This document shows positions 5,458 through 56,932 of a DNA stretch of 64,000 nt, one piece after another; the stretch's first letter is position 1; each line of letters opens with the position of its first letter. The DNA is taken from positions 12,820 to 76,819 of IMG/VR virus record IMGVR_UViG_3300021087_001082. One strand, 5' to 3'. Under the pieces are notes generated by a model, which had not been told where the DNA came from, ran no database searches, and saw only the letters and a program-made list of their open reading frames with translations. The translations under genes and the position numbers were made by a program. This stretch comes from a virus (taxonomy: Duplodnaviria; Caudoviricetes).

Positions 5458-6669
5458 ATGTACACACAAGATGATGTTGATCGATTAAGTGGCTCGGTCC
5501 ATATTGAATACACACTTGCAAAGCTAGGAGCAGCAAAATTACGTAAAAAATTAACGAATCAAAAATACGTTAGTGCACTTGGGGCATTAACAGGCAACCA
5601 AGCAATGCAACAAGCAAAGGCTGGGTTAGATTCAGTTTACCTTTCGGGGTGGCAAGTAGCAGGCGATGCTAATGATAGTTTAGAGATGTATCCTGATCAA
5701 TCTCTTTATGCAGTTAGCAGTGTACCCACAGTAGTTAAAAGAATTAATAATACATTTATTAGAGCAGATCAAATTCAATGGATGGAGGGAAGAGGTGACC
5801 CAGGTTTTAATCATATTGATTATTTTTTGCCAATTATTGCTGATGCTGAGTCCGGTTTTGGCGGTGTTCTTAATACACATGAACTAGTGAAAGATTTAAT
5901 CGAAGCAGGAGCAGCAGGTATTCATTTAGAAGATCAATTATCGTCTGCAAAGAAATGTGGACATATGGGAGGGAAGGTTTTAGTTCCAACTCAAGAGATG
6001 GTATCTAAATTAAAGGCTTCTCGATTAGCAGCAGACATAATGGGTGTTGATACAATTATTATTGCCCGTACTGATTCATTAGCCGGAGCATTATTAGTTA
6101 CTGATGCTGACGCACATGATAATAGATTCATAACAGGTGATCGTACTGATGAAGGTTTCTTTAGAGTGGAAGCAGGAATGGATCAAGCAGTTGCAAGGGG
6201 TATTTCATATGCTCCCTATTGTGATTTAATTTGGATGGAAACTGGTAATCCCGACATTGGTGAAATAACAGAATTTACAAAAGAAGTTCGTAAAGAGTTT
6301 CCTAATAAACAGTTTGCATATAACTGTTCACCATCTTTTAATTGGAAGAAGAAGTTATCTGATAGTGAAATAAGTTCCTTTAAAGATGAGCTCGGCGAGC
6401 TAGGTGTTACATATCAATTTATAACACTAGCAGGATTTCACTCATTGAATTATAGCATGTTTGAATTATCTGAGAACTATAGAGACAACGGAATGTCTGG
6501 TTATGTTGAATTACAAGAAAAAGAATTCGCAGCTCAGAAGAGAGGTTTTACAGCAGTGAAACATCAACGTGAAGTTGGCGCTAGTTATTTTGATGAAATT
6601 AATCAAATGTGTACTAATAGTACAGAACTTAGTTCATTAGAAGGATCAACAGAAAAAGAACAGTTCTAA
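5458..6669 (+). CDS. aceA: isocitrate lyase
   Basis: Catalytic KKCGHM signature; YLSGWQVA, ADAESGFGG, ARTD, AYNCSPSFNW and HQREVGA motifs. Confidence 0.97.
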   Translation: MYTQDDVDRLSGSVHIEYTLAKLGAAKLRKKLTNQKYVSALGALTGNQAMQQAKAGLDSVYLSGWQVAGDANDSLEMYPDQSLYAVSSVPTVVKRINNTFIRADQIQWMEGRGDPGFNHIDYFLPIIADAESGFGGVLNTHELVKDLIEAGAAGIHLEDQLSSAKKCGHMGGKVLVPTQEMVSKLKASRLAADIMGVDTIIIARTDSLAGALLVTDADAHDNRFITGDRTDEGFFRVEAGMDQAVARGISYAPYCDLIWMETGNPDIGEITEFTKEVRKEFPNKQFAYNCSPSFNWKKKLSDSEISSFKDELGELGVTYQFITLAGFHSLNYSMFELSENYRDNGMSGYVELQEKEFAAQKRGFTAVKHQREVGASYFDEINQMCTNSTELSSLEGSTEKEQF

Positions 6670-7391: not shown

Positions 7392-8084
7392 GTGATACAT
7401 GTATTCGGTGATTCATATTGTGATCCTCTCAATGGAAAGGGTGGAGGAATATCATCAGAAAAAAGGTGGTTCAATCTTTTAGACGAGCCTTCATTTGTTT
7501 TTGGTTTAGCGGGTTCTAGTATTGATTGGTCTTTGAATGTTTTTCTTGAAGGGCATAGGCATAGAGAAGGCAAAGTAATTTTTATTGAATCTATTCCAAG
7601 AAGATTTCATTTTGAGTTCTTACAATATCCCGGCCATGCAGGTGCGGTTCTATTTGATGATATGAAAGAGTGGGAAAATGATAAATGGCTTTCATCACCA
7701 CAAATGATATACCTTAATCAACATAAAAAGTTTATAGAATATTTTCATATAAATTATAAGGACTATCATAAAGCAACAAAAACAAGATGTACGTTAAAAG
7801 CTTTATCCGATCAATATGAGAAGGTCATTTACTTTGCCACATCACATAATAGAAATTTATATGCCCCTGCGGAAATAGAAAATACAGAAAAATTTATTAT
7901 ACCTGACATAACATTAATGGATATATCTCGAGCAGAGATAAAGAACGATTATGATCCTTCATTTAAAGATTGGAGATCAAATCATTTTACAGAAGAGAAT
8001 CATATAAATTTATCATCTTATATAAAGAGATTGTTTAATAATGAACCTGTGAATGATATAATATTTAATAAGAATGTGATATGA
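7392..8084 (+). CDS. SGNH/GDSL-like protein
   Basis: N-terminal VFGDSY, G.AGSS and C-terminal D...NH motifs. Confidence 0.55.
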   Translation: MIHVFGDSYCDPLNGKGGGISSEKRWFNLLDEPSFVFGLAGSSIDWSLNVFLEGHRHREGKVIFIESIPRRFHFEFLQYPGHAGAVLFDDMKEWENDKWLSSPQMIYLNQHKKFIEYFHINYKDYHKATKTRCTLKALSDQYEKVIYFATSHNRNLYAPAEIENTEKFIIPDITLMDISRAEIKNDYDPSFKDWRSNHFTEENHINLSSYIKRLFNNEPVNDIIFNKNVI

Positions 8085-9529
8085 TATATTGGGGTATTAC
8101 TTGTGGATCACATGACGGTGCTTTAGCTGTTTATGATAGTGCGAAACAAGAGGTTCTATTTGCAACCGACGCTGAAAGATTCTCTAGAAAAAAGAACGAT
8201 CCTCAAATACCTTTAAGCTTGTTAGATTATGTGAGAGAAGAATATGATGTCCCGGATAAAATTTATTTTTATGAGGATCCTCGTATAAAGATTTCTCGAA
8301 GATGGTATGCTGGACAGAAGCCAGCTTGGAAACCACCTGTGTTACCACATCCTTATAATACTAAACATTATAAGATGAAGTATACCTCGCATCATAGGTC
8401 ACATGCGACATATGGTTATTATACATCTCCTTTTACTGAATGTATGATATTATGTATTGATGCTATAGGAGAATGGGAAACATTAACTACTTGGTACGTT
8501 AAAGATCATAAATTTAAAAAATTATGGAACTGGAAATATCCTAAGTCTTTAGGATTAATGTATTCAGCATTGACACAGTACTCAGGTTGGAAACCCAATG
8601 AAGAAGAATATATTATGATGGGGGCTGCTGCTAGACAATCATATCCATATGATGTAGTAGTAAATAGAATTAGAGATTGTTGGGAAACAAAAAATATAAC
8701 CTGGCATAAAGGATGTAATAATATTCCAGAGTGGAATGTGAAACCAGAAATACATCCTCAGGATGTACCTACTGCTGCACAACATGTTTATGAAGAAGAG
8801 TTTCGTAAAGTATTAGGCCTATTAAGTCAACATAAGTTAAATAATGGAAATATAGTATTCGTGGGAGGATGTGCTTTAAATGTTAGTGCCAATAGATTTT
8901 TATCTGATTATTTTTCTAATATCTATATACCAGCTAATCCAGGTGACTCTGGATCTGCTATTGGATGTATTCTTGCAAGAACAAGAAACCATATTAGTCC
9001 TACTCCTTATCTTGGTTATGATATACAAGGACCGTATCCGTCCAAAGAAATAATTGAACACTTGATGATCGATCGAGTGGTTGGAGTAGCAAACGGAAAA
9101 TGCGAATTCGGACCACGTGCTTTAGGTAATAGAACACTCTTCGGAGATCCTACTGATAAAAAAATAAAACAAAAAATAAATGAAACAAAGGGTAGAGAAC
9201 AGTTCAGACCTTTTGCTCCGATGATATTACCTGAAGACGTGGCACAGTATTTTAATGGTGGATTTCATTCACCTTATATGAGTTGCGCATTATCAGCAAC
9301 AGAAGAATTTAAACAGAAATATCCTGGTGTTGTTCATTTAGATGGAACATCAAGATTACAAGTTGTTGATTCAGAACCTCATATAACATTATTAAAAATT
9401 TGGAAGGAGATAACAGGATGTCCTGTATTATTAAACACTTCCTTAAATGTAAAGGGACAACCAATTGTCAACACAAGAGAAGAAGCCGAAGCTTTCACTA
9501 AGAGAACAGGTGTTACTGTTCTTTCTTAA
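8081..9529 (+). CDS. carbamoyltransferase (NodU/CmcH family)
   Basis: HD, ERFSRKK, HHRSHA, DAIGE, GGCALN, EFGPRALGNR, FRPFAP and LLNTSLN motifs. Confidence 0.93.
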   Translation: MIYWGITCGSHDGALAVYDSAKQEVLFATDAERFSRKKNDPQIPLSLLDYVREEYDVPDKIYFYEDPRIKISRRWYAGQKPAWKPPVLPHPYNTKHYKMKYTSHHRSHATYGYYTSPFTECMILCIDAIGEWETLTTWYVKDHKFKKLWNWKYPKSLGLMYSALTQYSGWKPNEEEYIMMGAAARQSYPYDVVVNRIRDCWETKNITWHKGCNNIPEWNVKPEIHPQDVPTAAQHVYEEEFRKVLGLLSQHKLNNGNIVFVGGCALNVSANRFLSDYFSNIYIPANPGDSGSAIGCILARTRNHISPTPYLGYDIQGPYPSKEIIEHLMIDRVVGVANGKCEFGPRALGNRTLFGDPTDKKIKQKINETKGREQFRPFAPMILPEDVAQYFNGGFHSPYMSCALSATEEFKQKYPGVVHLDGTSRLQVVDSEPHITLLKIWKEITGCPVLLNTSLNVKGQPIVNTREEAEAFTKRTGVTVLS

Positions 9530-10945: not shown

Positions 10946-12188
10946 ACATCTACAGTTCTTAAATCATAGTTCATTATTATTAACTACATCTAAAACTAAA
11001 ATCCTATGTGATCCTTGGTTTAAAGGGACAGCTTTTAGTGATGGGTGGTCATTATTATACGATGAGTCTCATAACATCAATGAGTTAGACTTTGACTATA
11101 TTTGGATGTCACATGAACACCCTGATCACTTTTCAATACCCACATTACGAGAACTGAACAAAAGTTGTACTTTTCTTTTTCAAGAAACAAAAGATAAGAA
11201 AGTAAAAAAGTATCTTGAAGAAAAAGGTCATTTAGTAATAGAGCTTAAGAATAAAGAAGAAACAAAAATTGGTGACTTAAAGATTACATCTATTGTATGT
11301 GATGGCTTTGATTCAAGCCTGTTAGTAAAATATCCTGATGATAAGGTTTTACTAAACATTAATGATGCAATGGTATTAGATGATATAGAAGTTGATAAAG
11401 TTGATTTACTTACATTTCAGTATAGCTATGCAAATTGGGCTGGTAATAAAGGTGATAAAAAAATACCTAAGTATCTTCAGAGTATAATAGATAGTAAGAA
11501 TGATAAGGCAATAGCAAAGTTTAAACCAACTGCTATTATGCCATTTGCGAGTTTTGTATATTTTTCTCATGAAGAAAATTTTTACTGGAATGACAATAAT
11601 TGGATAGATCATGTGTTTAACAAATATTTATTTAATGAATCTTTTCTAATATTCCCTAAACCAGATCAATCAATATCATTAAACAATCTTGAGAAAACAC
11701 ATTATGATCTGTCTGCTTGTGCATTTTGGAAAGACAAATATAAGAATCTAATTATAAAAGATAAAGTTAAGCCACTATCTTTAGATCAAATTGAAGATTG
11801 TTATTTGAAGTTCAATAAAAAACTAAATCAAGAAAATACTATTGATAGTGATCTCTCATTAAATATAAAAATTAATGACCTAGATAAGATTATTAAGGTT
11901 GGATTAGTAGAGACCTCATTTGAAGTAGTTGATGAAGAAGAGACGATTAGTGTCTCATCTGAAACCGCAGGCTTCTTATTTTCTCAATTATTTGCAAGAG
12001 GTACAGTATGTGTTAATTCAAGAGTGTCTTTTAATTATAAAACAGCACACAAATTCTTTTTGTTCTTTTTTATACCTTATGCAAACAATATTGGAAAATA
12101 TTTTAAACAGTTTCCAAAAGATGCATATACATCAATAATGAAAACATCAGTAATGAGTGCAATTAATGGAAGTGATAACCTCGTATGA
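10938..12188 (+). CDS. metallo-beta-lactamase-fold protein (UlaG/CMP-NeuAc hydroxylase-like)
   Basis: NHSS, CDPWF.G.AF, SHEHPDH and PFASF motifs. Confidence 0.8.
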   Translation: MDKHLQFLNHSSLLLTTSKTKILCDPWFKGTAFSDGWSLLYDESHNINELDFDYIWMSHEHPDHFSIPTLRELNKSCTFLFQETKDKKVKKYLEEKGHLVIELKNKEETKIGDLKITSIVCDGFDSSLLVKYPDDKVLLNINDAMVLDDIEVDKVDLLTFQYSYANWAGNKGDKKIPKYLQSIIDSKNDKAIAKFKPTAIMPFASFVYFSHEENFYWNDNNWIDHVFNKYLFNESFLIFPKPDQSISLNNLEKTHYDLSACAFWKDKYKNLIIKDKVKPLSLDQIEDCYLKFNKKLNQENTIDSDLSLNIKINDLDKIIKVGLVETSFEVVDEEETISVSSETAGFLFSQLFARGTVCVNSRVSFNYKTAHKFFLFFFIPYANNIGKYFKQFPKDAYTSIMKTSVMSAINGSDNLV

Positions 12189-12241
12189 AAAAAAAACATA
12201 GACAACTTTATGATTCATGGAAATATAAAAAAGGAGGCTTA

Positions 12242-12679
12242 ATGGAATTTAATAATCCCATTTTTCAGACCCTATTAGGGTTAGTGATTTTTTACATTGG
12301 TTTAAAAATGTTTTCGGGTGGAATGAAAAGCATGGGTAAGTTAGAACACCTTGAAGTCTTTCTTGGAAATCCTTACTATATGTTTATTGGTGGTATTGTG
12401 ATGACTCTTTTGTGGCAATCTTCATCACTCTCTACTACTGCAATTATCGGATTGGTCGCGAGTGGCGCACTTCCTCTCCCCGCAGCAATCGGTGCAGTTC
12501 TTGGAGCTAACATCGGAACGACAGGTACTATATGGTTAGCAGGGATAATGGTTTCTGATGGAATGCCTCAAGGAATAACAAAACAGGTAGCCATGGTCCA
12601 TACAGGAGTCAACCTGTTCATGGCAGTTCTCTTGTTACCATTTGCTCAACATATAGCTAGGTTTATATCAAGATTCTGA
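12242..12679 (+). CDS. half-size Na+/Pi cotransporter family protein
   Basis: QSSS and GANIGTT signatures, hydrophobic; AAGGAGG RBS favours ATG 12242. Confidence 0.85.
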   Translation: MEFNNPIFQTLLGLVIFYIGLKMFSGGMKSMGKLEHLEVFLGNPYYMFIGGIVMTLLWQSSSLSTTAIIGLVASGALPLPAAIGAVLGANIGTTGTIWLAGIMVSDGMPQGITKQVAMVHTGVNLFMAVLLLPFAQHIARFISRF

Positions 12680-12795: not shown

Positions 12796-13013
12796 GTCCG
12801 TTCTTTTATAAGATGTCCCATTTGATGCTCTGCAAGCGCATCAAGGTCTGTATATGTTTCGTCGCATTCGAAGCAACTAGCAAATCCATTTTTCTTATAA
12901 AAGTTTTCTTCATCTATCATTTCTCTTGCTTGCCTTTGTAGCTCATTTATCACGTCGTGTATTCCATGTCCACCTGGGTAGATCGGAAATACTTTATTGC
13001 TACTTTTAGGCAT
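12786..13013 (-). CDS. small C2H2 zinc-finger-like protein
   Basis: CFECDETYTDLDALAEHQMGH (CxxC-x12-HxxxH); start overlaps the upstream stop. Confidence 0.65.
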   Translation of the reverse strand: MPKSSNKVFPIYPGGHGIHDVINELQRQAREMIDEENFYKKNGFASCFECDETYTDLDALAEHQMGHLIKERTLG

Positions 13014-13885
13014 TACATAAGTCCTGCTCTTTTCATTCCACTAATAAGTCTCGTCATTCCTATTCCACCTCCAAACCTAGGTCTGAAGTCATGCCCCAGA
13101 AATTCATCAAGTTCTGCTTCTACTCTTTCTTCACCGAATAGATCATACAATAAACTGGCATACCCACCATCTGATATTGTATGGAATTGTTTCCTCATTT
13201 CATCAACATCGGTTGCACGTTCAGCACTACCGATTGTTTCCATGCCACCAATAATAACATCGCATTTATTAGCAAGGCTGGCAGTTTTTTTCACATCTTG
13301 TTGACCAAGTTTCATGTTCCAGAAAGGACTTGTTGATTCCGGAAAATGGGTTAAAAAGAATACATCTCCATATTCTTGATACATTTCTTCTTCATGGCCA
13401 GCATCTAATTCTTCACCAGTATATTTTGCTAATACACTTTGATACATGCCACCCGGAAAATCTAAATCTTTATATGGAGCTCTTCCATGATCACAATGAA
13501 ATCCTAAATGAATTAATAAATCATTTTCCAGTTTTAATAATTCTTCAAAGTCGCCAGGAGCTTCAAATTCAAACATTGGGAAGATTAGTTCATGTCTTCC
13601 TTCTATTGAATTTTGTTCTTGCCTGTAACTTGTGCTAACACAATAACAACCTGGCAGATCAGGTTTAGTTAACAATTCATATTCTAACCACATTTGCCCT
13701 GTTTGTGGTAATGGCCATATTTGACCATTATAATTATAGGTAGCAACTGTAGTGGGATCTTCGCATGCGGCGAGGATTGATAATCTGCTTTGGGTATGTA
13801 CTTCTTGAAAATTACGTGAGGAAAAAAAGGAACGGAGTTGTGAGACTACATTAGTGAAATCGGTTGGATCGATTAAACTAGTTAT
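13013..13885 (-). CDS. class IIb aaRS catalytic-core protein (AsnRS/AsnA-like), no anticodon-binding domain, ATA start
   Basis: Motif 1 (LRSFFSSRNFQEVHT), motif 2 (SYRQE...RH...FPMFEFE), motif 3 (GGGIGMTRL); frame open 64 codons upstream of the tracked ATG, to an ATA behind AAGGAGG. Confidence 0.85.
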   Translation of the reverse strand: MTSLIDPTDFTNVVSQLRSFFSSRNFQEVHTQSRLSILAACEDPTTVATYNYNGQIWPLPQTGQMWLEYELLTKPDLPGCYCVSTSYRQEQNSIEGRHELIFPMFEFEAPGDFEELLKLENDLLIHLGFHCDHGRAPYKDLDFPGGMYQSVLAKYTGEELDAGHEEEMYQEYGDVFFLTHFPESTSPFWNMKLGQQDVKKTASLANKCDVIIGGMETIGSAERATDVDEMRKQFHTISDGGYASLLYDLFGEERVEAELDEFLGHDFRPRFGGGIGMTRLISGMKRAGLM

Positions 13886-23856: not shown

Positions 23857-24021
23857 ATGAAACTTCTTATTTTAATTTACCTACAGTTCCTTTATACAAT
23901 AGGAGCATTTACAGGTAGGTGTTGGATAGACCAACAGATATTATGGTGTTATAAAACACTAGAATCAAAGGGACATAAAGTAGAACATTATTATAGCATT
24001 CCTGAAAAACAAAATAAATGA
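23857..24021 (+). CDS. 54 aa hypothetical protein with hydrophobic N-terminus (not in ORF track)
   Basis: MKLLILIYLQFLYTIGAF...; fills the gap between the M15 peptidase and gp43, ATGA overlap with gp43. Confidence 0.5.
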   Translation: MKLLILIYLQFLYTIGAFTGRCWIDQQILWCYKTLESKGHKVEHYYSIPEKQNK

Positions 24022-26522
24022 AATTTTACACTAATGTTCATCAAATTGGTGATCATATATTAGTAAGAGGATATGAGAATGGTCAGAAGTTCGATGACCG
24101 TGTTGAATATCGGCCTACCATTTTTATACCTTCTAGAGAGAAGTCAAGTCATACAACTATTGAGGGGAAATATCTATCCCCTGTTAAACCTGGAACAATA
24201 AAAGAAACAAGAGATTTTATTCGTAGATATGAAGGTGTTGATAACTTTCAAATTTATGGAATGAATACTTATAGGTATAGTTGGATCTATGATAACTTTC
24301 CAAAAGACAAAGGTATAGAATATGATTTTGGTTTATTGTCAATCGCGTCTATTGATATTGAGGTTGGTTCAGAACATGGCTTTCCTGATCCTATATCTGC
24401 AATTGAAGAAATACAAGCAATCACCGTTGGTAATAATGGGAAGTATTATGTTTTCGGTTGTGGGGATTATAAAGCCCATGAAGATAACATAGAATATTTT
24501 CAATGTTCTGATGAGAATCATTTACTTCAAGAGTTTCTTGGCTTCTGGGAAAAGCTAGCTCCAGATATTATTACAGGTTGGAATATTCAAGGCTTTGATA
24601 TTCCTTATTTGTATAATCGCATAGTCAGGTTATATGAAGTTAAAGAAGCCCGCAGGCTATCTCCGTGGAGGTTAATACATGAGCGAGTTACTCAGTTTCG
24701 TGGAAAAGATGTTACTTTTCATGATATTATTGGCATTTCTGTTATTGACTATATTGACGTTTACAGACGTAATAGTCCCCCTGCTGAATCTTATCGGCTC
24801 GATTACATCGCATCAATAGAACTAGGAGAAAGAAAATTATCATTTGAAGAGTATGGTAATCTCTATACATTATATAAAGAAAACTTCCAACTGTTCATTG
24901 AATATAATATTAAAGACGTACAATTAGTTGAGCGATTAGAAGAAAAGAAAAAGTTAATCGAAATGGTAGTCGCTCTTGCATATGAAGCAAAAGTAAATTA
25001 TCAAGATACATTTGGAATGGTTATGATGTGGGAAGTGATTCTCGCAAACGATTTAATGAATAGAAATATTGTTGTCCCACCAAAGAAAGATAATACAAAG
25101 AATAAAGCTTATGTAGGTGCGTATGTAAAGGAAGTACAAACAGGTATGCATAATTGGGTTGTTAGCTTCGATTTAAACAGCCTATATCCTCATTTAATTA
25201 TGCAATACAATGTTAGTCCTGAAACTATTTTAACAGGTATTACACAGCAATGTGGCATTGATAACCTATTAAATAAGAAGATCGATTTAGATAAGTTCTA
25301 TGAAAAAGATATTACTATTGCAGCAAGTGGTCAAGCATTCAGAAAAGACACACAAGGATTCTTGCCTAGATTAATGCAAGAGAAGTATAATAATCGTGTC
25401 ATCTTTAAAAAGAAGATGATTGAAGCAAAGAAGAAGTTAGAAAAAGAAACAGATCCAAAGAAGATTGATAAACTGCAGAAGGAAGCAGATTCGTTTGGTA
25501 ATAAGCAGACCGCCATGAAGTTAATGCTTAATAGTGTTTATGGCGCTTTCGGTAATCCATATTTTAGATTTTATGATTTAAGAATTTCTGAGGCAATTAC
25601 ATTAGGAGGGCAGCTCAGTATCAGATGGGCGGAAACCACTGTCAATAATTATCTCAATCAAATATTGGAAACAAAGGAGGTTGATTATGTATTGGCATCG
25701 GATACTGACTCCCTCTATATTACTTTGGATGCTTTAGTTAAAAAGGTATTCCCAGAGGATGTGGAGACAACAAAGGTTATTGATTTTCTAGATAAGGTTT
25801 GTGAAGAGAAGATAACAAAGATAATTGATACAGGATATGCTGATTTAGCAAAGTATATGAATGCTTATGATCAGAAGATGTTTATGAAAAGAGAATGTCT
25901 TGCTGATAAAGGAATATGGACTGGTAAGAAACATTATATTTTAAATGTTCATGATAATGAAGGTGTTCGATATACAAATCCTCGAATTAAAGTTATGGGA
26001 ATTGAATCTGTTAAATCTTCAACACCAACATCTTGTAGAGATAAATTAAAAAAGTCTTTTGATATTATCATTAATAAAGATGAATTAGCCATACAACAAT
26101 TTATTGCGGATTTTAGAACACAGTTTGAAAAAGAACCTATCGAGAATATTGCATTTCCTAGATCTGTAAAAGGAATTGAAAAGTATAATGGTGGACATAC
26201 TTTATATGCTAAAGGAACACCGATACATGTGAAAGCAACACGTTTATATAATCATTTTTTAAAAGAGAAAAAGTTACAAAATAAACATCCTTTAATTCAA
26301 GAGGGTGAGAAGATTAAGTTCGTTTATTTAAAACAACCTAACCCTATTAGGGATAGTGTGATAGCCATGATGGAGGGGCTACCTGAAGAGTTTGGTCTCC
26401 ATGATTACATTGATTATGAGAAGCAATTTGAGAAATCATTTAGGGGACCATTGAATGAAATACTGAAAGTAATTGGTTGGTCACCAGAGAAGGTAAGTTC
26501 TTTGGAAGCGTTTTTTGTTTGA
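24018..26522 (+). CDS. gp43: family B DNA polymerase
   Basis: Exonuclease DIE and GWN..GFD; polymerase SFDLNSLYP, K...NS.YG and DTDS motifs. Confidence 0.98.
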   Translation: MKFYTNVHQIGDHILVRGYENGQKFDDRVEYRPTIFIPSREKSSHTTIEGKYLSPVKPGTIKETRDFIRRYEGVDNFQIYGMNTYRYSWIYDNFPKDKGIEYDFGLLSIASIDIEVGSEHGFPDPISAIEEIQAITVGNNGKYYVFGCGDYKAHEDNIEYFQCSDENHLLQEFLGFWEKLAPDIITGWNIQGFDIPYLYNRIVRLYEVKEARRLSPWRLIHERVTQFRGKDVTFHDIIGISVIDYIDVYRRNSPPAESYRLDYIASIELGERKLSFEEYGNLYTLYKENFQLFIEYNIKDVQLVERLEEKKKLIEMVVALAYEAKVNYQDTFGMVMMWEVILANDLMNRNIVVPPKKDNTKNKAYVGAYVKEVQTGMHNWVVSFDLNSLYPHLIMQYNVSPETILTGITQQCGIDNLLNKKIDLDKFYEKDITIAASGQAFRKDTQGFLPRLMQEKYNNRVIFKKKMIEAKKKLEKETDPKKIDKLQKEADSFGNKQTAMKLMLNSVYGAFGNPYFRFYDLRISEAITLGGQLSIRWAETTVNNYLNQILETKEVDYVLASDTDSLYITLDALVKKVFPEDVETTKVIDFLDKVCEEKITKIIDTGYADLAKYMNAYDQKMFMKRECLADKGIWTGKKHYILNVHDNEGVRYTNPRIKVMGIESVKSSTPTSCRDKLKKSFDIIINKDELAIQQFIADFRTQFEKEPIENIAFPRSVKGIEKYNGGHTLYAKGTPIHVKATRLYNHFLKEKKLQNKHPLIQEGEKIKFVYLKQPNPIRDSVIAMMEGLPEEFGLHDYIDYEKQFEKSFRGPLNEILKVIGWSPEKVSSLEAFFV

Positions 26523-26548: not shown

Positions 26549-27046
26549 ATGAATAAATTATGGTACACTTGGCAGGAAATGTGTCTTGATGTTAATCAAC
26601 TCTGTAGAGAGATTACATTAGATAACTTTACGCCGGACGTGATCGTGGGTTTAAGTAGGGGAGGTCTAACGCCTGGCGTTATGATGTCTCATTGGTTAAA
26701 AAAACCTTTTAAGCCCGTGAAGAGCTCTCTTAGAGATTTTCCAGAATGGGAAGATTATCTTCCTAGAAAATCAGATGAGAGGGTTTTAATAGTAGATGAC
26801 ATATGCGATAGTGGTGAAACGTTTGAACGTATATCATCTTTTATTAAGGGCCCAAGAAAGGATCAGCCCTTAGAAATCAGTTGTGATGTAAAATTTGCAT
26901 CCCTCTGGTGGAATAATGAAGTTAAATTCGAACCTCATTATTACGTAAGGGAGGTAGCAAAAGATACCGAGAATCTCTGGATTCATTTTCCATGGGAATC
27001 ATGGTGGTCTGCGCCTCTTACTTTTCAAAACAATTTAAAAGGATAA
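26549..27046 (+). CDS. purine phosphoribosyltransferase (Gpt/Hpt-like)
   Basis: GLSRGG, PRPP motif VLIVDDICDSGET, WIHFPWE. Confidence 0.88.
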   Translation: MNKLWYTWQEMCLDVNQLCREITLDNFTPDVIVGLSRGGLTPGVMMSHWLKKPFKPVKSSLRDFPEWEDYLPRKSDERVLIVDDICDSGETFERISSFIKGPRKDQPLEISCDVKFASLWWNNEVKFEPHYYVREVAKDTENLWIHFPWESWWSAPLTFQNNLKG

Positions 27047-27049
27047 TTT

Positions 27050-27271
27050 ATGTTAGATAACGTGCTCGGTTGGATTAGAGGTATAACCGAATTAGGTCTT
27101 GCAATAATTGCTCTTGGCGTTGTTCTTCAAGTAATTTTTGGTGCAGCTGTACCATTTCTCGGAATGGATATCGTGGGTTCAGTAGTGTCACTCGTAAAAC
27201 AATTAGGTGCAGAAGGATTAATCGGCCTAGTTTCAATATGGGTACTTTGGGGAATCTACTCTAAGAGGTAA
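27050..27271 (+). CDS. small two-helix membrane protein
   Basis: 73 aa, strongly hydrophobic. Confidence 0.7.
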   Translation: MLDNVLGWIRGITELGLAIIALGVVLQVIFGAAVPFLGMDIVGSVVSLVKQLGAEGLIGLVSIWVLWGIYSKR

Positions 27272-27285
27272 GATAACTAAAAAAT

Positions 27286-27310
27286 AAAAGGCCTCTTCGG
27301 GGGCCTTTTT
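27286..27310 (+). terminator. rho-independent terminator
   Basis: AAAAGGCCTC-TTCG-GGGGCCTTTTT. Confidence 0.9.
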
Positions 27311-27394
27311 ATACGCGAGAGCGGTGAAGGGGTTGGAAGACCCGTTAATGATGAGCGAGAGAGATTAACACACACTTTTCTTGGAAGGAGAAAA

Positions 27395-28486
27395 ATGAAA
27401 AAATTAATTTCAATTTTTATAATTTTGGTTGCAGGTGCAACCTTATTTGGTATTACGGCAGTTAGTAAAAAATTGCCTTCAGTTGGTTATGTTCTAGTGG
27501 GACCAAAAAACGATGGCGGATGGTCAATGAGACATTATCATGGATTCATGTCATTAAAAAAACATGGTTATAACGTAGCTGGTGTCGAAATGGTACCAGA
27601 ATCAGAATCAACAAAAGTATTTCGTAAACTTGCCAGAAAACATGATATTGTCTTTGCAACTTCATTCGGTTATATGGATGGAATGGTAAAAGCTGCAACG
27701 AAAGACCCAGATACAATTTTCATGCATGCCACAGGTTACAAGGGTAATGATACAAATATGGACAACTACGTTTGTCACTCATTTCAAGCACGATACCTAA
27801 CAGGGATTGCGGCTGGAATGTTGACAAAGACAAATAAGATTGGTGTAGTTGGCTCACACCCTATTCCTGAAATTATTCGTAATATTAATGCACTTACACT
27901 TGGTGCACAAACAGTAAATCCTGATATTGAAGTTTCTATAGTATGGATAAATTCTTGGTTTGATCCACCTAAAGATATGGATGCGGCCAAGGCTCTTCTT
28001 GATGCAGGAAATGATATACTCTATACAACAACCGATTCACCTAGTGTAGTTGCTCTTGCTCAACAAGCATGGAAAACTAATGGTAAAGAAGTTTGGAGTA
28101 TGGGTAATGATGCACCTATGGGAAGTAACGGCCCAGACCGATACATCACAGGAATGATGTTCAACTGGAATGTTCTTTACAAACATATCGTTGACCAACT
28201 TGCAGCTGGAAAACTCAAAATGAACCAGAGATGGAATTGGGGCTTACAAGAAAATTGTGTAGGTCTATCTCCATGGGGTAAGAATGTTCCGGGTGAAGTT
28301 GTTAATAAAGTTGAAACCGTCAAGATGCAATGGATTCAAGATGATCTGGATACATTCTTTCCTTTTGATCAAGGAATCACAAAAGCTGATGGAAGCACAG
28401 TTGGTAAAGGTGAAATTGCTAGACCTCAAATAGAAACTATGCAATATTTTGTTAAAGGGGTTGTTTCCCGATTTCCCTCAAAATAA
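27395..28486 (+). CDS. BMP-family (PnrA-like) purine/nucleoside-binding protein
   Basis: Signal peptide; VGPKNDGGWS, FATSFGYMD, RYLTG.AAG, RNINA..LG and SWFDPPK motifs. Confidence 0.9.
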   Translation: MKKLISIFIILVAGATLFGITAVSKKLPSVGYVLVGPKNDGGWSMRHYHGFMSLKKHGYNVAGVEMVPESESTKVFRKLARKHDIVFATSFGYMDGMVKAATKDPDTIFMHATGYKGNDTNMDNYVCHSFQARYLTGIAAGMLTKTNKIGVVGSHPIPEIIRNINALTLGAQTVNPDIEVSIVWINSWFDPPKDMDAAKALLDAGNDILYTTTDSPSVVALAQQAWKTNGKEVWSMGNDAPMGSNGPDRYITGMMFNWNVLYKHIVDQLAAGKLKMNQRWNWGLQENCVGLSPWGKNVPGEVVNKVETVKMQWIQDDLDTFFPFDQGITKADGSTVGKGEIARPQIETMQYFVKGVVSRFPSK

Positions 28487-28503
28487 TATAATGAAAGGTA
28501 TAT

Positions 28504-29637
28504 ATGGAAGGCTTATTTGAAAGCATTCTGACCGCAGTAGCGGTTGTTATTAATGGTATCCCTCAGGGAATTTTGGCGTTAAGCTTTGGCTTCGCAGCTT
28601 TTCCTACGGCAATAGCATTTGTAATTGGTATCATTGGTTCGGCATTCTTTATGTCTGTCGCAACTATATCCTTTCAAGCAGAAACAATCACGTTAGCTGG
28701 TACTCTAGGTAATAATATAAAAGAAAGACTTTCTCTTATATTTTGGGGTGCCACCCTACTGTTGATTCCCTCTTTGCTTGGAATGAATGAAGCGTTAGTT
28801 AATTTTATTGGTCCCCTAGTTGTCACATCAATGATGGCTGGAGTGGGTATTATGTTAGCGAATGTTTCTGTAGATTTGTTTAAGTCAGAAAAATGGACAG
28901 GAGGAGTATCTTTAATTAGTGCTTTACTTGCTTGGTTTTGGACTAAAGACTTAGCACAAACAATTATATGGTCCGTGAGTTTATCTACACTTTTTTATGT
29001 TGCATTAAAGTTTTATGCTCCATTACGCGAAAAGTTAGGTGTCGTACTAGAAGAAATTGTAGTAGACAGCTCACGCGAAAAGTTTACAACGGGCAACATT
29101 GAGTGGAAGTTTTGGACTAATAGAAACATCGTTATTGGTGCTTTATCATTAGCATGTTTAAACATTGGGGCCAATATTTCATTTGGTAAAATTACTGGAA
29201 GTATTGCAGGGACTAATACAAATATAGATCATCTTGCAATTTATTCTAGTCTTGCAGATATGGGCTCAGCATTCTTTGGTGGTGGTCCAGTTGAAGCGAT
29301 AATTTCTGGAACTGCGGCCGCACCTATGCCAATAGTTGCATCTTGTATTATGATGGGAATTATGGCAGTTATTCTATTAAGCAAAGCATTGCCTTTGATC
29401 GGGCAGTATGTACATAGAGCATCTATTGCAGGTTTTCTTTTTGTATTAGGTGTATTCGTTACCTTTGCTACAAATATTGCTGGTGCTATTAGCATTGGTG
29501 GAACCTTTGCTGGACCATATGGATTTGGAGCAGCAGGAATGGTAATTGGCGCTGCAGCATTTGTAACTGCAAAATTTAATCCTTTTTATGGTTTGCTTGC
29601 AGGATTTGCTACAAGCCTAATCATGATGGGGGCTTAA
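28504..29637 (+). CDS. NCS2/AzgA-like nucleobase permease
   Basis: Polytopic membrane protein; ISFQAET and GGGPVEAIISGT motifs; purine gene context. Confidence 0.7.
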   Translation: MEGLFESILTAVAVVINGIPQGILALSFGFAAFPTAIAFVIGIIGSAFFMSVATISFQAETITLAGTLGNNIKERLSLIFWGATLLLIPSLLGMNEALVNFIGPLVVTSMMAGVGIMLANVSVDLFKSEKWTGGVSLISALLAWFWTKDLAQTIIWSVSLSTLFYVALKFYAPLREKLGVVLEEIVVDSSREKFTTGNIEWKFWTNRNIVIGALSLACLNIGANISFGKITGSIAGTNTNIDHLAIYSSLADMGSAFFGGGPVEAIISGTAAAPMPIVASCIMMGIMAVILLSKALPLIGQYVHRASIAGFLFVLGVFVTFATNIAGAISIGGTFAGPYGFGAAGMVIGAAAFVTAKFNPFYGLLAGFATSLIMMGA

Positions 29638-29638
29638 T

Positions 29639-30229
29639 ATGGCTTGGGGAGAACCTTTTACAGATGAGTTCTACGAATTAAAAGTCGCAGGACTTACACG
29701 TAAGTTACCCAAAGTCAAAATCAATGACGAGCTCGCTATTGCGAGCTTTGTCATATTGGGTGATACAGAATTAATAGAAGAATGTGCTGAAGCAATGATT
29801 CTTCTGAATAATTTTCCAAAGAAAGATGAAATTGATATTTTTTGTACACCAGAAGCAAAGGGAATACCGTTGGTACATACCATTGCAAGAAGGTTAGAAA
29901 AAGATTATGTCATTGCAAGAAAATCTATCAAAGGATATATGAATGATCCTATGATAGAAAAAGTTCAATCTATCACTACAATCGGCGCACAAACACTTGT
30001 CCTTGATAGGAGTGATGTTAAGAAATTAGAAGGAAAGAGAGTAGGTATTATTGATGATGTAGTATCTACAGGGGGCTCTTTGATAGGACTTCAGACAATG
30101 TTAGAAAAAATTGATTGTTCTATTGTATGTAAAGCAGCTGTTTTATTGGAAGAGGCTGGATATGCCAAAGGTGATATACTTTATTTAGAAAAACTCCCAA
30201 TTTTTAAACCAGATGATTCCGATAATTGA
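29639..30229 (+). CDS. adenine-type phosphoribosyltransferase
   Basis: PEAKGIP, ARKS, SITT and PRPP motif IIDDVVSTGGS. Confidence 0.85.
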   Translation: MAWGEPFTDEFYELKVAGLTRKLPKVKINDELAIASFVILGDTELIEECAEAMILLNNFPKKDEIDIFCTPEAKGIPLVHTIARRLEKDYVIARKSIKGYMNDPMIEKVQSITTIGAQTLVLDRSDVKKLEGKRVGIIDDVVSTGGSLIGLQTMLEKIDCSIVCKAAVLLEEAGYAKGDILYLEKLPIFKPDDSDN

Positions 30230-31109
30230 TTTGAAAAGTGATACTTGCGAAGCGCAGATGTATGACGCTTATACAACTGTGGGATTCGCAGTATTCACTA
30301 ATGTTTATGATGAGTGGCTATCAGAATTTCAAGACTGGAAGCAACTCATGGACGAGTTCTTCCAACTACCATTAGATGTGAAAAAGAAATATGTATATAA
30401 TGGAGTAAAGGGTTCCTCAACATGTCGTGCCGGCTGGGGCGAGATGGGTTATATTCAGAGTCGAGATGGTGATTCGAAAGAATCATATAATTGGATTGAA
30501 CCAGCAAGAATGCAAGAACAATATTGGCCTACAGAAATTCCAGAGTTTAAACCATTAGCTCAATCTATCCTTCAGATCTCTCAACGTCTTTCTTATCAAT
30601 TTTTCAATAAGTTTGAAAGTATGTTCAAACATAAAAAAGGATATTTAATAGATAAGCATACGAATGGTTATGTTAATATGAGAATGCTTCATTATCCAGC
30701 GCACAAGAAGCAAGAGGATCACGAGTTCGGAGGAGAACATACTGATTATGGTTCTATCACTTTACTCTTTCGTTTCGATGATGTTGGAGGTTTACAAGTA
30801 CAGGATAGAAAAACAGATGAATGGATTGATGCTCCTGTAGTGAAAAATTCAATAGTATTAAACATTGGAGATATGTTTCAAAGATGGTCTAATGATACGT
30901 TAAAATCAACTAATCATAGAGTTGTTAATACAGTTCATACAAACTCTAGATATTCAATGCCGTATTTTGTAGATCCCGGTAGAGATGTATTAATTAAGAA
31001 TTTCACAGATGAACCAGATAAACATTTACCAATTTCTACCGATGAATATTTTAAACAGACACTAGCTCTACACAATGTTGAACAGAGTTGGGAACAACAG
31101 ATTAATTAA
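30213..31109 (+). CDS. isopenicillin N synthase-family 2OG-Fe(II) oxygenase
   Basis: IPIIDL, LHYP, HTDYGSITLL, GGLQV, NIGD, HRV and RYS motifs. Confidence 0.9.
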   Translation: MIPIIDLKSDTCEAQMYDAYTTVGFAVFTNVYDEWLSEFQDWKQLMDEFFQLPLDVKKKYVYNGVKGSSTCRAGWGEMGYIQSRDGDSKESYNWIEPARMQEQYWPTEIPEFKPLAQSILQISQRLSYQFFNKFESMFKHKKGYLIDKHTNGYVNMRMLHYPAHKKQEDHEFGGEHTDYGSITLLFRFDDVGGLQVQDRKTDEWIDAPVVKNSIVLNIGDMFQRWSNDTLKSTNHRVVNTVHTNSRYSMPYFVDPGRDVLIKNFTDEPDKHLPISTDEYFKQTLALHNVEQSWEQQIN

Positions 31110-31119
31110 AAAGGAAAAT

Positions 31120-31425
31120 ATGTTACCAGTATTATTATTTAATGTGATTTCAGGACTTGTTATGGACAAAGCTCAAGACCTTGCGAAAGAACACGTGGAA
31201 GCAATGATTGATAGTATCATTCCAGATGATGCAAAAGAAGAGTTAGATGATCTCGTTAAATCAGATCCTACTCACATGTTTGAAACAGCAAAAGATGCTT
31301 TAGTAGGTGCAGTCGAAGGAAAGCTTCCTATACCATTAAAAGATGGAACTATTAAACCTATAGAACTTATTATTAAAGTGAAATTCGATCCTACCACTAT
31401 GGATTTAGATATCGAAAAAGCTTGA
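31120..31425 (+). CDS. hypothetical protein
   Basis: AAGGA RBS before ATG 31120. Confidence 0.6.
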   Translation: MLPVLLFNVISGLVMDKAQDLAKEHVEAMIDSIIPDDAKEELDDLVKSDPTHMFETAKDALVGAVEGKLPIPLKDGTIKPIELIIKVKFDPTTMDLDIEKA

Positions 31426-31450
31426 CATTTGTTTTAACCTGTGGTATAAT
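31422..31450 (+). promoter_or_regulatory. sigma70-type promoter
   Basis: TTGACA-N17-TATAAT with extended TG. Confidence 0.9.
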
Positions 31451-31477: not shown

Positions 31478-32542
31478 ATGAGTTATTTTGATGAAATGTT
31501 GAAAGTAGCGAACAACACTTATGGTTCAAAAGTGAGTGATGGTGTTGAAGCTGGAGATGTCGAAAGTTATATCGACACAGGATCATACATATTAAATGGA
31601 TTATTATCTGGGAGTATCTATGGAGGATTACCTTCTAATAAAATCACTGCGTTCGCTGGTGAAAGTTCTACAGGAAAAACTTTCTTTGTCTTGGGTTGTG
31701 TCAGACAGTTTCTTGCAGATAATCCTAGCGGCGGTGTTATTTACTTTGAGTCTGAATCCGCTTTAACAAAACAGATGATAGAATCAAGAGGAATTGATTC
31801 TAACCGAATGATTATCCTGCCCGTTGCAACAGTTCAAGAATTTAGAACACAAGCAACAAAAATTTTAGAAAAACATTTAGAAGAATCTGAAAAAGATCGA
31901 CCACCAATGATGTTATGTTTAGATTCATTAGGTAATCTTTCTACCTCTAAAGAGATGGAAGATGTTAGCGATGGTAAAGAGACCAGAGATATGACCAGAG
32001 CTCAAATGGTTAAAGGAACATTTAGAGTTCTTACTTTGTTAGGAGGTAAAGCAAAGGTTCCTCTTGTTGTTACTAATCACACATATGATCAAATAGGGAC
32101 ACTGTTTCCTCAAAAGATTATGGGTGGTGGAACCGGTCTCCATTATGCCGCATCTAGCATAGTATTCCTGTCTAAGAAGAAAGAAAAGGATGGGACTGAG
32201 GTAATTGGTAATATAGTCCATTGTAGAAATTTTAAATCTCGGCTCACTAAAGAGAATAAGATGATTGATGTTCTTCTTACTTATAAAGAAGGATTAAATC
32301 GTTATTATGGTTTAGCAGAATTAGCTGAGAAGTATGGAATCTTTAAAAAGGTTTCTACTAGATTAGAAATGCCAGATGGTGAAAAAGTTTTCTTGAAATC
32401 AATTCTAAAAAATCCTACTAAGTATTTTACCAAAGAGATTTTAGATAAAATAGATGCAGTAGCCCATAAAGAATTTCTTTATGGTGAAGTCGGTCTTGAA
32501 GAAGAAGCAGCAGAGGAAGAGGATGTCGAACGAACTGACTAA
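31478..32542 (+). CDS. uvsX: RecA-like recombinase
   Basis: [23 protein letters not shown] and MGGG.G motifs. Confidence 0.95.
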
Positions 32543-52798: not shown

Positions 52799-53677
52799 AT
52801 GTACCCTCAAGATTTGCAATTTACTAATATATTTAGGACAGACGAGACTAACATAGGTGACTGGTATAGTTCCCCTGCTATGTACTTTGATCTACCAGGT
52901 AATACAAAAGATATCTGGAAATTAGATCATGCATATGAACCGGAACATGAAAATATCATTTATGGTGGAGGTGGACTCATAGGACAAATGAGACCTATGG
53001 CGCATACTATAACAAATCAGAAAAATGGTAATTATAAAGTATTTGGATGGGGAATAGGAGAACATATTTATGTTAGTATGGATGAACAAACACAATCTAT
53101 TCCTCCAATAGATATATCATATCCCTTTTATATTAGAAAATTTGATTTATTAGGTATTAGAGATTGGTATCCTGGAATATATACTGCGGTACCTTCAGCT
53201 AGATGGGTTCCATGCGCGAGTTGCATGCATGAAGCCTTTGATAAAGAATATGAAGTAAAAAATGATATTGTTTTCTTTACACATCAATCACTACCAATGT
53301 TTATTATTCATATGATGCCTAAACAAACATGGGACTATCCTCATATGGCAAATGATAACAAACAAACATTTGAAGAAGTAATAGAATTTCTTGGAAGTTC
53401 AGATGTAGTTGTCACAAATTCATATCATGGGGCTTATTGGGCGACTCTTTTAGGAAAAGCTGTTGTTGCCTTTCCATGGGCTTCTAAATTTCATGGATTA
53501 AAACATAAACCAATTCTTTGTCCTGCACCTGATTGGTGGAAGGAATTAAATGATAGGGAACAACATCAGTATAAACATGCGCTTGAAGAATGTAGGCAAG
53601 CAAATAAAGATTTTCATTTAGAAATGATAAATTATATTTTAAATGTACCTCAAACATTAAAATTCGAGACAACATGA
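52799..53677 (+). CDS. polysaccharide pyruvyl-transferase-like protein
   Basis: NIGD, GGGGL, WGIG, GIRD, VPCASC and TNSYHG motifs. Confidence 0.7.
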   Translation: MYPQDLQFTNIFRTDETNIGDWYSSPAMYFDLPGNTKDIWKLDHAYEPEHENIIYGGGGLIGQMRPMAHTITNQKNGNYKVFGWGIGEHIYVSMDEQTQSIPPIDISYPFYIRKFDLLGIRDWYPGIYTAVPSARWVPCASCMHEAFDKEYEVKNDIVFFTHQSLPMFIIHMMPKQTWDYPHMANDNKQTFEEVIEFLGSSDVVVTNSYHGAYWATLLGKAVVAFPWASKFHGLKHKPILCPAPDWWKELNDREQHQYKHALEECRQANKDFHLEMINYILNVPQTLKFETT

Positions 53678-54711: not shown

Positions 54712-55134
54712 TTGATTAGAGGAATAGCATTTTCGTGTTTTGATTTATTACACGCCGGACATATTACAATGTTAGCAGAAGCGAAACAACATTGTGATTA
54801 TCTTATTGTTGGATTGCATACATCACCCGGACATAAAAAGAATGTAGTACAATCATGCTTTGAGCGATGGGTACAATTAAAAGGATGTAAGTATGTGGAT
54901 GAGATTATCCCATATGAATCAGAAAAAGATCTTAAGAATATACTCAAGACAATAACACCTCTTCATATGAGATTTTTAGGTGAAGAATATTTACGTGACA
55001 ATTTGTTTATAACAGGGTATAATATATGTTTAAATAGAAATATTGAAATTCATTATTGTCGAAGATATCATGATTATAGTTCAACTGAGTTAAAGGAGAG
55101 AATTGCTAGTTTGCCAAACACCTCTAAGAGTTAG
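54712..55134 (+). CDS. TagD/RfaE-type nucleotidyltransferase
   Basis: FDLLHAGH, YVDEI and YSSTELK motifs. Confidence 0.88.
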   Translation: MIRGIAFSCFDLLHAGHITMLAEAKQHCDYLIVGLHTSPGHKKNVVQSCFERWVQLKGCKYVDEIIPYESEKDLKNILKTITPLHMRFLGEEYLRDNLFITGYNICLNRNIEIHYCRRYHDYSSTELKERIASLPNTSKS

Positions 55135-56931: not shown

Positions 56932-56932
56932 T

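Follow-up and report, generated by a model that had tools for sequence, protein, structure and literature searches.

Between the genes for the DNA polymerase gp43 and the recombinase UvsX of a T4-like phage lies a cassette of six co-oriented genes which probably causes the infected cell to collect free purine bases and to retain them as nucleotides (Table 1). The DNA analysed, in the following called the window, is a stretch of 64,000 nucleotides (nt) covering positions 12,820 to 76,819 of the IMG/VR virus record IMGVR_UViG_3300021087_001082. The cassette encodes, in this order, a small phosphoribosyltransferase (PRTase; PRT1), a hydrophobic protein of 73 amino acids (aa), a binding protein of the BMP/PnrA family (BMP), a membrane carrier, a second PRTase (PRT2) and a 2-oxoglutarate (2OG)-Fe(II) oxygenase. 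It is a composite of a widespread phage core, i.e. PRT1, sometimes the 73-aa gene, BMP and often the oxygenase, and a separately gained carrier-PRT2 module. An earlier reading of this DNA, made from the sequence only, had seen one inserted cassette, a view that does not hold, as the core is widespread in phages and the carrier-PRT2 module is a separate unit, absent from the closest relatives.

According to the mechanism we propose, the two parts, probably of different origin, would provide two routes of uptake. In the core, exported BMP would catch adenine or guanine outside the cytoplasmic membrane and pass the base to a host ATP-binding cassette (ABC) permease of the BMP type, similar to cyanophage PstS with host Pst, and PRT1 would use phosphoribosyl pyrophosphate (PRPP) to turn the base into a nucleoside monophosphate. 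The add-on of bacterial origin would constitute a second, ATP-independent route, in which an NCS2/AzgA-like carrier imports a purine base on its own and PRT2, a PRK07322-type enzyme dedicated to this carrier, traps the imported base with PRPP. The products may feed the class II ribonucleotide reductase of the phage (49116-51164) and its replication genes and thus flow into DNA. We read the cassette as a purine system because it contains two purine-type PRTases, because bacterial orthologues carry guanine-type riboswitches and because a purine-base pocket is conserved in BMP, which lends indirect support to the purine capture and salvage suggested by the sequence-only reading.

BMP matches the family model PF02608 (E 1.2e-45, 156.2 bits, cut-off 24.1), in agreement with its earlier label, and among solved structures it shows full-length similarity (E 1e-57) to 3s99 from Brucella (3.8e-57) and AtzT from Pseudomonas (6pi5, 1.3e-56). 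According to the available part of the AtzT report, this protein binds guanine with a Kd of 0.11 µM and adenine with a Kd of 2.5 µM, with a value above 8 mM for GTP, and adenine was modelled in 3s99 (PMC6834077). In our alignment the AtzT pocket residues Tyr45, Ser97, Phe98, Glu165, Asn169, Trp194, Asn218 and Asn220 correspond to W43, S90, F91, E159, N163, W188, T212 and D214 of BMP. At six of the eight guanine-contact positions the residue is the same or a conservative aromatic substitute (W for Y45; S, F, E, N, W), keeping the aromatic sandwich and the Ser/Phe/Glu/Asn contacts, whereas Asn218/Asn220 of AtzT are replaced by Thr/Asp in the phage protein and by His/Asp in 3s99. All eight pocket residues are shared by 12 of 13 rows of the phage family. 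BMP appears to belong to a purine-base subgroup of the BMP/PnrA family and is predicted to bind such bases. Its N-terminus is a hydrophobic segment that points to export, with or without anchoring; none of the 13 phage-family rows has a cysteine, and hence a lipobox, within the N-terminal 30 residues, whereas several cellular rows do have one.

BMP is an orphan at the level of the whole genome. As already noted in the sequence-only reading, no ABC ATPase or permease for it was found among the 80 window open reading frames (ORFs) scanned, nor in the whole 76.8-kb record, and the BMP-type permease family PF02653 was absent from all five phage records searched, two of which are complete. ABC ATPase matches (PF00005) in related records were confined to an unrelated NitT/TauT-type system on one other contig and one weak P-loop match. 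Since BMP occurs without the carrier on most contigs and no BMP-type ABC permease was found in the phage records searched, BMP most likely docks on a host BMP-type ABC permease, by analogy with phage PstS and host Pst. Thus, of the two partners considered earlier, a secondary transporter and a host ABC system, the latter fits better (BMP without carrier in 33/52 contigs, carrier without BMP in at least six).

Cyanophage PstS is a phage-encoded orphan phosphate-binding protein which is thought to work with the host Pst permease. Like PstS, BMP is a predicted-exported binding protein that lacks ABC membrane and ATPase parts and is widespread in ocean phages. It differs in its predicted ligand, a purine base, in travelling with a salvage enzyme, and in its distance from cellular proteins. 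At 50% identity the phage BMP family falls into one cluster, and the closest representatives beyond it are about 40% identical (29-49% over the matched stretches), so that no recent host donor is visible from these comparisons; the nearest named cellular proteins, from metagenome-assembled genomes (MAGs) of Alphaproteobacteria, share 36-39% identity. Among 8,000 candidates scored, 5,767 BMP homologues passed E 0.001, and the core to which BMP belongs is abundant in ocean phages. Matches of BMP and PRT2 among "phages" that stem from short unannotated human-faecal contigs and from one 3.8-kb Enterococcus phage record were not taken as phage evidence.

PRT1 is a type I PRTase (PF00156, 51.8 bits, cut-off 26.3). 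A PRPP-binding loop can be read at around residues 79-91 of its translation (a hydrophobic run, two acidic residues and a small Ser/Thr-Gly stretch), and its solved relatives are archaeal "purine PRTases", i.e. 1vdm (1.6e-12), 4trb (GpT-1) and 4z1o (GpT-2). The previous designation as Gpt-like applies only loosely, as PRT1 stays far below the cut-off of the xanthine-guanine PRTase (Gpt) equivalog NF006613 (36.2 bits vs 138). The 73-aa protein has no family match in Pfam, NCBIfam or PHROGs and no match in cultured phages; of the members of its two nearest Atlas clusters (548 and 238 sequences), 84-95% are viral.

The carrier is hardly accessible by sequence. It has no match among Pfam (PF00860 up to E 10), NCBIfam or PHROG models and none in cultured phages; against solved structures it gave two chance-level matches at E 0.13, and a profile of 30 sequences matched no solved chain. 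The model predicted by AlphaFold (AF2), with a mean confidence (pLDDT) of 87.5, consists of two seven-helix repeats (14 helices) with short strands, 54-55 and 260-265, preceding helices 3 and 10, and over its whole length (377 residues) it matches UraA (Z 28.3, 346 residues), SLC26A3 (Z 28.2) and AZG1 (Z 27.2). As modelled, the fold is certainly the 7+7 inverted repeat of the UraA/SLC26 type. The earlier assignment as NCS2-like permease rests on this fold and on the homologues, of which 1,369 were found at E <=0.001 and are named NCS2 or AGZA permeases in their source databases. From 30 aligned homologues six reach PF00860 (best E 3.6e-7), and six reach MFS_MOT1, but the window protein itself fails to match any family model. 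Compared with NCS2/AzgA carriers (UraA, AZG1/AZG2, PbuG-type), the phage carrier shares the whole-length 14-helix fold and the names of its homologues; it differs in being shorter, in escaping a direct Pfam match and in a fold score tied with that of SLC26/SulP proteins. We assign purines as its putative substrate because of its fixed PRTase partner and the riboswitches, not because of the fold.

This partner, PRT2, matches NF005592 (PRK07322) with 222.8 bits (cut-off 143) over positions 2-178 of 180, in line with the Apt-like label it had been given, as well as PF00156 (47.6 bits, cut-off 26.3), and a PRPP loop is readable at around residues 124-137. The solved relatives, with E-values of 1e-37 to 1e-39, include the adenine PRTase 5zgo (2.8e-39) and the adenine/guanine PRTase 6fsp.

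In bacteria, carrier and PRT2 form a fixed operon. Among the best 80 of 292 confirmed carrier relatives, the gene for PRT2 lies directly downstream of the carrier gene on the same strand in 79 loci, and in the 80th the contig stops at the carrier. The notion that all these families cluster in bacterial loci is therefore right for carrier and PRT2 only; homologues of BMP, PRT1, the 73-aa protein and the oxygenase were found in none of the same 80 loci at E 1e-5. The purine riboswitch RF00167 (Rfam, 57-90 bits) is present in 9 of 15 distinct loci scanned, each time a short way ahead of the carrier gene. These nine aptamers were used to construct a covariance model which, run on the 80 bacterial loci, the window and 29 viral loci, identified a purine aptamer in 30 of the bacterial loci, located 9-286 nt upstream of the carrier in 29 of them (median 124 nt). 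All 30 belong to the 41 loci from Bacillota and Thermodesulfobacteriota, whose carriers are 45-52% identical to that of the phage, as opposed to none in the 39 loci from Synergistota, Spirochaetota and Fermentibacterota (63-72% identical). In the window the Rfam scan matched only a tRNA, and the covariance model found no aptamer in the window or the 29 viral loci at E-values up to 1. In purine riboswitches a C at the specificity position marks the guanine/hypoxanthine type and a U the adenine type. The 30 aptamers have C in 29 cases and U in one, and judged by this position the bacterial orthologue operons are under guanine riboswitch control in Bacillota and Thermodesulfobacteriota.

The single aptamer with a U (L107:5875-5955, Clostridiaceae) has a near twin with a C (L096) and may represent a guanine-to-adenine switch on the same operon.

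The classical counterpart of this operon is xpt-pbuX of Bacillus subtilis, in which a xanthine phosphoribosyltransferase and a xanthine permease are under control of a guanine riboswitch. In both cases a purine-base permease and a dedicated type I PRTase form a two-gene unit, and 30/80 of the bacterial orthologue loci contain a purine riboswitch, in 29 cases of the guanine type. In the carrier-PRT2 unit, however, the permease comes first, the carrier family is short (367-377 aa) and barely seen by the Pfam NCS2 model, PRT2 belongs to the PRK07322 subfamily instead of Xpt, and the phage copy lacks a riboswitch.

To trace the origin of the module, trees were calculated for the carrier (93 rows) and PRT2 (92 rows) from the 80 bacterial loci (79 for PRT2) and 12 chosen representatives of the 29 viral loci. 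In both trees 11 marine phage sequences form one clade beside Spirochaetota, inside a Synergistota-Spirochaetota group, with support values of 100 and 93 in one tree and 88 and 98 in the other. Since the two trees agree, the pair was most likely taken up once and together, from a donor that can be named only among the sampled genomes.

The oxygenase carries both domains of its family (PF03171, 88.1 bits, E 5.4e-25, cut-off 23; PF14226, 34.0 bits, cut-off 27.3), confirming its assignment to the isopenicillin N synthase (IPNS) family. The HxD...H iron ligands and the RxS motif for 2OG are intact in the translation. The chemistry of its solved relatives varies widely, thymine dioxygenase being one of them, and cultured phages contain no homologue beyond one weak match. 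The enzyme is 88% identical to an oxygenase of one MAG labelled Acidimicrobiaceae, whose contig may be mis-binned phage.

The cassette is carried by phages and recurs widely. Retrieval with the carrier (29 loci) and with BMP (66 loci) as query together yielded 76 distinct viral contigs with parts of it, and the full order gp43, PRT1, 73-aa gene, BMP, carrier, PRT2, oxygenase, ORF116, UvsX, gp41 is repeated on several contigs from different samples. At least 86% of the sampled words of a 5.6-kb stretch were found in 14 DNA runs from 9 studies, 3 of which are possible sources of the record, and 36-66% in 6 metatranscriptome runs from 6 studies; taken together, the runs containing the stretch come from 14 studies. 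Exact contigs from two independent DNA runs span the five junctions checked, i.e. gp43|PRT1, 73-aa gene|BMP, BMP|carrier, carrier|PRT2 and PRT2|oxygenase up to uvsX; PRT1|73-aa gene was not among them. RNA-library contigs from two studies both span 26545/6-27267/8, corresponding to PRT1 and the 73-aa gene. They hint only weakly, if at all, at a transcript, since variant sites also create contig ends in such assemblies.

Among phage copies the ratio of nonsynonymous to synonymous divergence (dN/dS) ranges from 0.04 to 0.33 for each cassette gene, e.g. 0.04-0.20 for PRT1 and 0.08-0.33 for the 73-aa gene. Relatives differ by a ratio of 0.03-0.08 in gp43 and UvsX, with 0.25 for gp43 against a very distant contig (L009). 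These ratios indicate purifying selection on all cassette genes, and together with the same arrangement on many independent viral contigs they exclude that the six ORFs are chance ORFs.

The composite nature of the cassette becomes evident from its relatives, all proportions given here being conditional on retrieval with carrier or BMP. The five closest contigs (L114-L118; gp43 98% and UvsX 99% identical) have PRT1, the 73-aa gene, BMP, oxygenase, ORF116 and UvsX, without carrier and without PRT2; where relatives have no carrier module, ORF116 still accompanies the oxygenase and uvsX. Fifty-two BMP contigs extend 2 kb or further downstream of BMP; of these, 19 have the carrier, 33 lack it and 37 have the oxygenase. 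Where at least 800 nt upstream are available (55 BMP contigs), PRT1 precedes BMP in 44 and the 73-aa gene occurs in 24. Conversely, six contigs with enough upstream DNA carry the carrier without BMP (L014, L024, L025, L027-L029). Synonymous divergence (dS) differs between cassette and backbone genes: relative to contig L003 it is 0.09-0.11 for BMP, carrier and PRT2 and 0.84-0.95 for gp43 and UvsX, whereas relative to the nearest backbone, L114, it is 0.92 for BMP and 0.22 for gp43. Judged by these values, the modules have been exchanged between phage lineages.

Several points weigh against a purine uptake and salvage function. The support consists of sequence and structure comparison, and the ligand and substrates are predicted. 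With about 40% identity to representatives outside its own cluster, BMP can only be presumed to fit any particular host permease. The carrier of the window matches no Pfam model, and SLC26/SulP anion carriers match its fold equally well (Z 28.2 vs 28.3 and 27.2), so that the fold alone confers no NCS2 membership. Riboswitches occur only on distant orthologues (0/39 nearest bacterial relatives, 0/30 viral sources), and the frequent position of the oxygenase after BMP finds no explanation in the salvage scheme. The RNA-library contigs demonstrate that the sequence is present in the libraries and are no proof of transcription. Finally, in the two groups of cultured phages inspected the PRT1 homologues lie inside 7-deazaguanine clusters, and a complete close relative has FolE and QueC.

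The last point leads to the strongest rival, which is still live and which we nevertheless consider unlikely. In this case the core (PRT1, perhaps BMP) would serve 7-deazaguanine modification of DNA instead of bulk nucleotide supply: PRT1 could recycle guanine displaced from DNA or activate the 7-deazaguanine base, and BMP could import guanine-like 7-deazapurines. All ten cultured-phage records with a PRT1 homologue (28-31% identity) fall into three phage groups, two of which were inspected for gene neighbours. The homologue of Synechococcus phage BUCT-ZZ01 lies within QueE-PRT-orf-QueD-FolE and that of Flavobacterium phage immuto among QueD, QueE, PRT, FolE, DpdA and QueF. Moreover, FolE and QueC are encoded by a complete 167-kb relative (gp43 98% identical), separated by an ORF of 283 aa and followed by one of 220 aa, in a part of the genome that the record of the window phage does not include. 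In marine phage contigs, however, PRT1 adjoins BMP (44/55) and not que genes, and in the relative the que genes are about 75 kb away from the cassette. None of five related records, two of them complete, has a match to the family of tRNA-guanine transglycosylase (TGT) and DpdA, although a divergent DpdA could escape the model, and a second complete relative lacks FolE and shows only a weak QueC-like stretch. In addition, recycling of guanine would be purine salvage anyway, so this rival overlaps with the function proposed here.

The region of the 167-kb relative just mentioned (L177, G001:C1:95500-105500) reads SNase, orf284, FolE, orf283, QueC, orf220, dCTP deaminase, gp33, gp59, gp32. From its gene content it probably represents 7-deazaguanine synthesis without a recognisable TGT/DpdA; in a comparison with PHROGs, two of its three ORFs matched families of "unknown function" and the third had no match.

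Less probable again is that the cassette acts on other compounds, such as vitamin B6-type molecules, triazines, cytokinin-like N6-substituted adenines or uric acid. The sole NCBIfam match of BMP is a B6-binding equivalog, AtzT demonstrates in the part of its report at hand that the pocket can drift to triazines (PMC6834077), AZG2 structures among the fold matches hold trans-zeatin, and the oxygenase hints at an extra chemical step. Yet the score against the B6 model is far under the cut-off (59 vs 400 bits), the transport genes lie between two purine-type PRTases, guanine-type riboswitches are present on the distant orthologues, and BMP retains the aromatic sandwich and acid/amide pocket seen in the structures with bound adenine or guanine.

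We also give little credit to the idea that BMP and the carrier, perhaps with the 73-aa protein as third subunit, constitute one binding-protein-dependent secondary transporter, TRAP/TTT-like and built on the 7+7 fold. To our knowledge no transporter of this class on a 7+7 inverted-repeat fold has been described so far, and if it existed it would allow high-affinity purine import without host transport parts or ATP. The genes of BMP and carrier are adjacent and co-oriented here and on 19/52 BMP-bearing phage contigs, an ABC partner is not encoded, and BMP, carrier and PRT2 have moved as a block, as seen from their low dS relative to L003 in comparison with gp43 and UvsX of the same pair. Nevertheless, BMP lacks the carrier in most of these contigs (33/52), the carrier lacks BMP in six, BMP was found near bacterial carrier orthologues in 0/80 loci and the 73-aa gene is present in only 24/55 contigs. 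Two prediction runs for a complex of BMP (residues 27-363) with the carrier returned "no answer" (score 0.00), which speaks neither for nor against binding.

A role in counter-defence is very improbable. Nucleotide-depleting defence effectors do exist, and the PRTases might rebuild AMP and GMP from bases freed by ATP- or dNTP-cleaving immune effectors, with the transport genes recapturing what leaks out. Apart from one related phage contig (L125) that contains a PF18967 domain of the Pycsar effector type, this is deduction; Pfam, NCBIfam and PHROGs gave no match to a defence or anti-defence family for the cassette (no PADLOC search was made), and the combination of an exported binding protein with a carrier suits import into the cell more than repair within it. 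Lastly, an assembly chimera of phage and host DNA, which the slightly raised GC content at 27-30 kb (0.38 vs 0.33-0.35 in the flanks) might suggest and which the sequence-only reading had named as what would overturn it, is practically out of the question and, as far as public data can show, already refuted by the bridged junctions, their recurrence on many independent viral contigs from different samples and dN/dS values far under 1.

Auxiliary genes with which phages capture phosphate (PstS) or make purines are textbook examples. If the purine uptake and salvage function proposed here is correct, the cassette would represent a further nutrient-uptake strategy for phages, in which purine bases from seawater serve as nitrogen-rich building blocks of DNA. 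Additionally, two poorly characterised bacterial families, i.e. the 367-377-aa carrier and the PRK07322 phosphoribosyltransferase, would gain a testable function. We found no description of a phage purine uptake cassette in the literature searched, and a survey of pelagimyophages (PMC7029224) mentions neither purine, phosphoribosyl, permease, Bmp nor isocitrate. In the available portion of a preprint on SAR11 bacteria, a "purine MFS permease" and a "purine phosphoribosyltransferase" are described as a near-universal route for the uptake of intact purines in the surface ocean (bioRxiv 10.1101/2024.02.09.579562). The route resembles the phage module, by description only, in combining a permease with a PRTase, and on the strength of that portion of the preprint purines are therefore an available resource where the phage lives. 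Sequences from Pelagibacterales are absent from the best 80 bacterial loci. The word "phage" is absent from the text of the preprint, and a working cassette would bear on the purine cross-feeding in the surface ocean which that text, as far as available, describes for cells only (bioRxiv 10.1101/2024.02.09.579562).

The source record (76.8 kb) is rated 44% complete, and the gene set of the window is that of a T4-like myovirus, comprising sliding clamp, clamp loader, RegA, dUTPase, gp43, UvsX, gp41, RNase H and the class II ribonucleotide reductase. As the identity of gp43 to the polymerases of cultured phages does not exceed 50%, with cyanomyoviruses closest, the lineage is, by its genes, an uncultured T4-like phage of the ocean; DNA of cultured phages resembles the region at the polymerase end only. 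Seven co-oriented ORFs on the + strand separate gp43 from uvsX, namely the six cassette genes, all found where the sequence-only reading had placed them, and a backbone ORF (Table 1). The terminator-like hairpin was reported on the - strand by the scan, and its T run trails it when read on +. The promoter match before uvsX may, as a consensus match, mark the right end of the transcription context of the cassette. The T4 late-promoter consensus occurs 5 times in the window, with 11 expected by chance, and not within the cassette.

Table 1. Genes and signals from gp43 to uvsX, in window coordinates
Feature	Position	Strand	Basis
gp43, family-B DNA polymerase, left flank, outside cassette	24018-26522	+	PF00136, PF03104
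PRT1, small type I purine phosphoribosyltransferase, phage family	26549-27046	+	PF00156, phrog_8995
73-aa hydrophobic protein, probably two membrane helices (predicted)	27050-27271	+	ORF; no family match
Terminator-like GC hairpin followed by T run, between 73-aa gene and BMP	27286-27310	+	consensus match only
BMP/PnrA-family binding protein, orphan	27395-28486	+	PF02608
Carrier, 377 aa, 14-helix UraA/SLC26/AzgA fold, predicted purine-base permease	28504-29637	+	AF2 model, homologue names
PRT2, PRK07322-subfamily purine phosphoribosyltransferase	29639-30229	+	NF005592
IPNS/ACC-oxidase-type 2OG-Fe(II) oxygenase	30213-31109	+	PF03171 and PF14226
ORF116, 116-aa ORF, phage backbone, outside cassette	31075-31425	+	no family in Pfam, NCBIfam, PHROGs
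Sigma-70-type promoter match with TG extension, directly before uvsX	31422-31450	+	12/12 consensus positions; consensus match only
UvsX, RecA-like recombinase, right flank; gp41 helicase next	31478-32542	+	PF00154, E 1.1e-12

In two independent metagenome runs the summed contig depth at window positions 27309-28430, i.e. at BMP, is 24-412 compared with about 8-18 in the flanks, an excess of roughly 2-50 times, and many variant contigs are found at this peak. The excess fits BMP being common to many more phage lineages than the carrier module. Near BMP, related contigs encode a Pycsar-effector-like membrane domain (PF18967, L125:2894-3580), a MotA/ExbB-like protein (L121:5667-6179) and, on L158 (1746-3065 and 4568-4816), a Zeta-toxin/AAA kinase, with a weak 5'-nucleotidase-like C-terminal match under the Pfam cut-off, and ribosomal protein S21. 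In a contig whose polymerase is only 28% identical to gp43 (L009:9729-15502; 42 kb, 2% complete according to CheckV), PRT1-BMP-carrier-PRT2 is followed by a complete NitT/TauT-type ABC importer consisting of an NMT1-like binding protein, ATPase and permease, next to which lie two 2OG oxygenases and an arylsulfotransferase.

Outside the cassette, the window encodes an isocitrate lyase (5458-6669; PF00463, E 2.4e-97), whose gene adjoins BMP or the carrier module on phage contigs L125, L123 and L014. Further auxiliary genes at 8081-9529, 12185-12679 and 13013-13693 (-) code for a carbamoyltransferase, a 164-aa piece of a Na+/Pi cotransporter domain, which recurs on the related phage contigs L123 and L009, and an AsnA-like protein of the class II synthetase fold, the last running on the opposite strand. 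A sugar/heptose-type set at 52799-57721 (pyruvyl transferase, glycosyltransferase, cytidylyltransferase, GHMP kinase, SIS isomerase) is followed at 60606-63755 by an NAD epimerase, a radical SAM protein and a protein of the tryptophan-halogenase family. The part of the record upstream of the window (L174, G000:C1:4286-10145) codes for a SET-domain protein and for two proteins of the radical SAM type, one of which contains a B12-binding domain.

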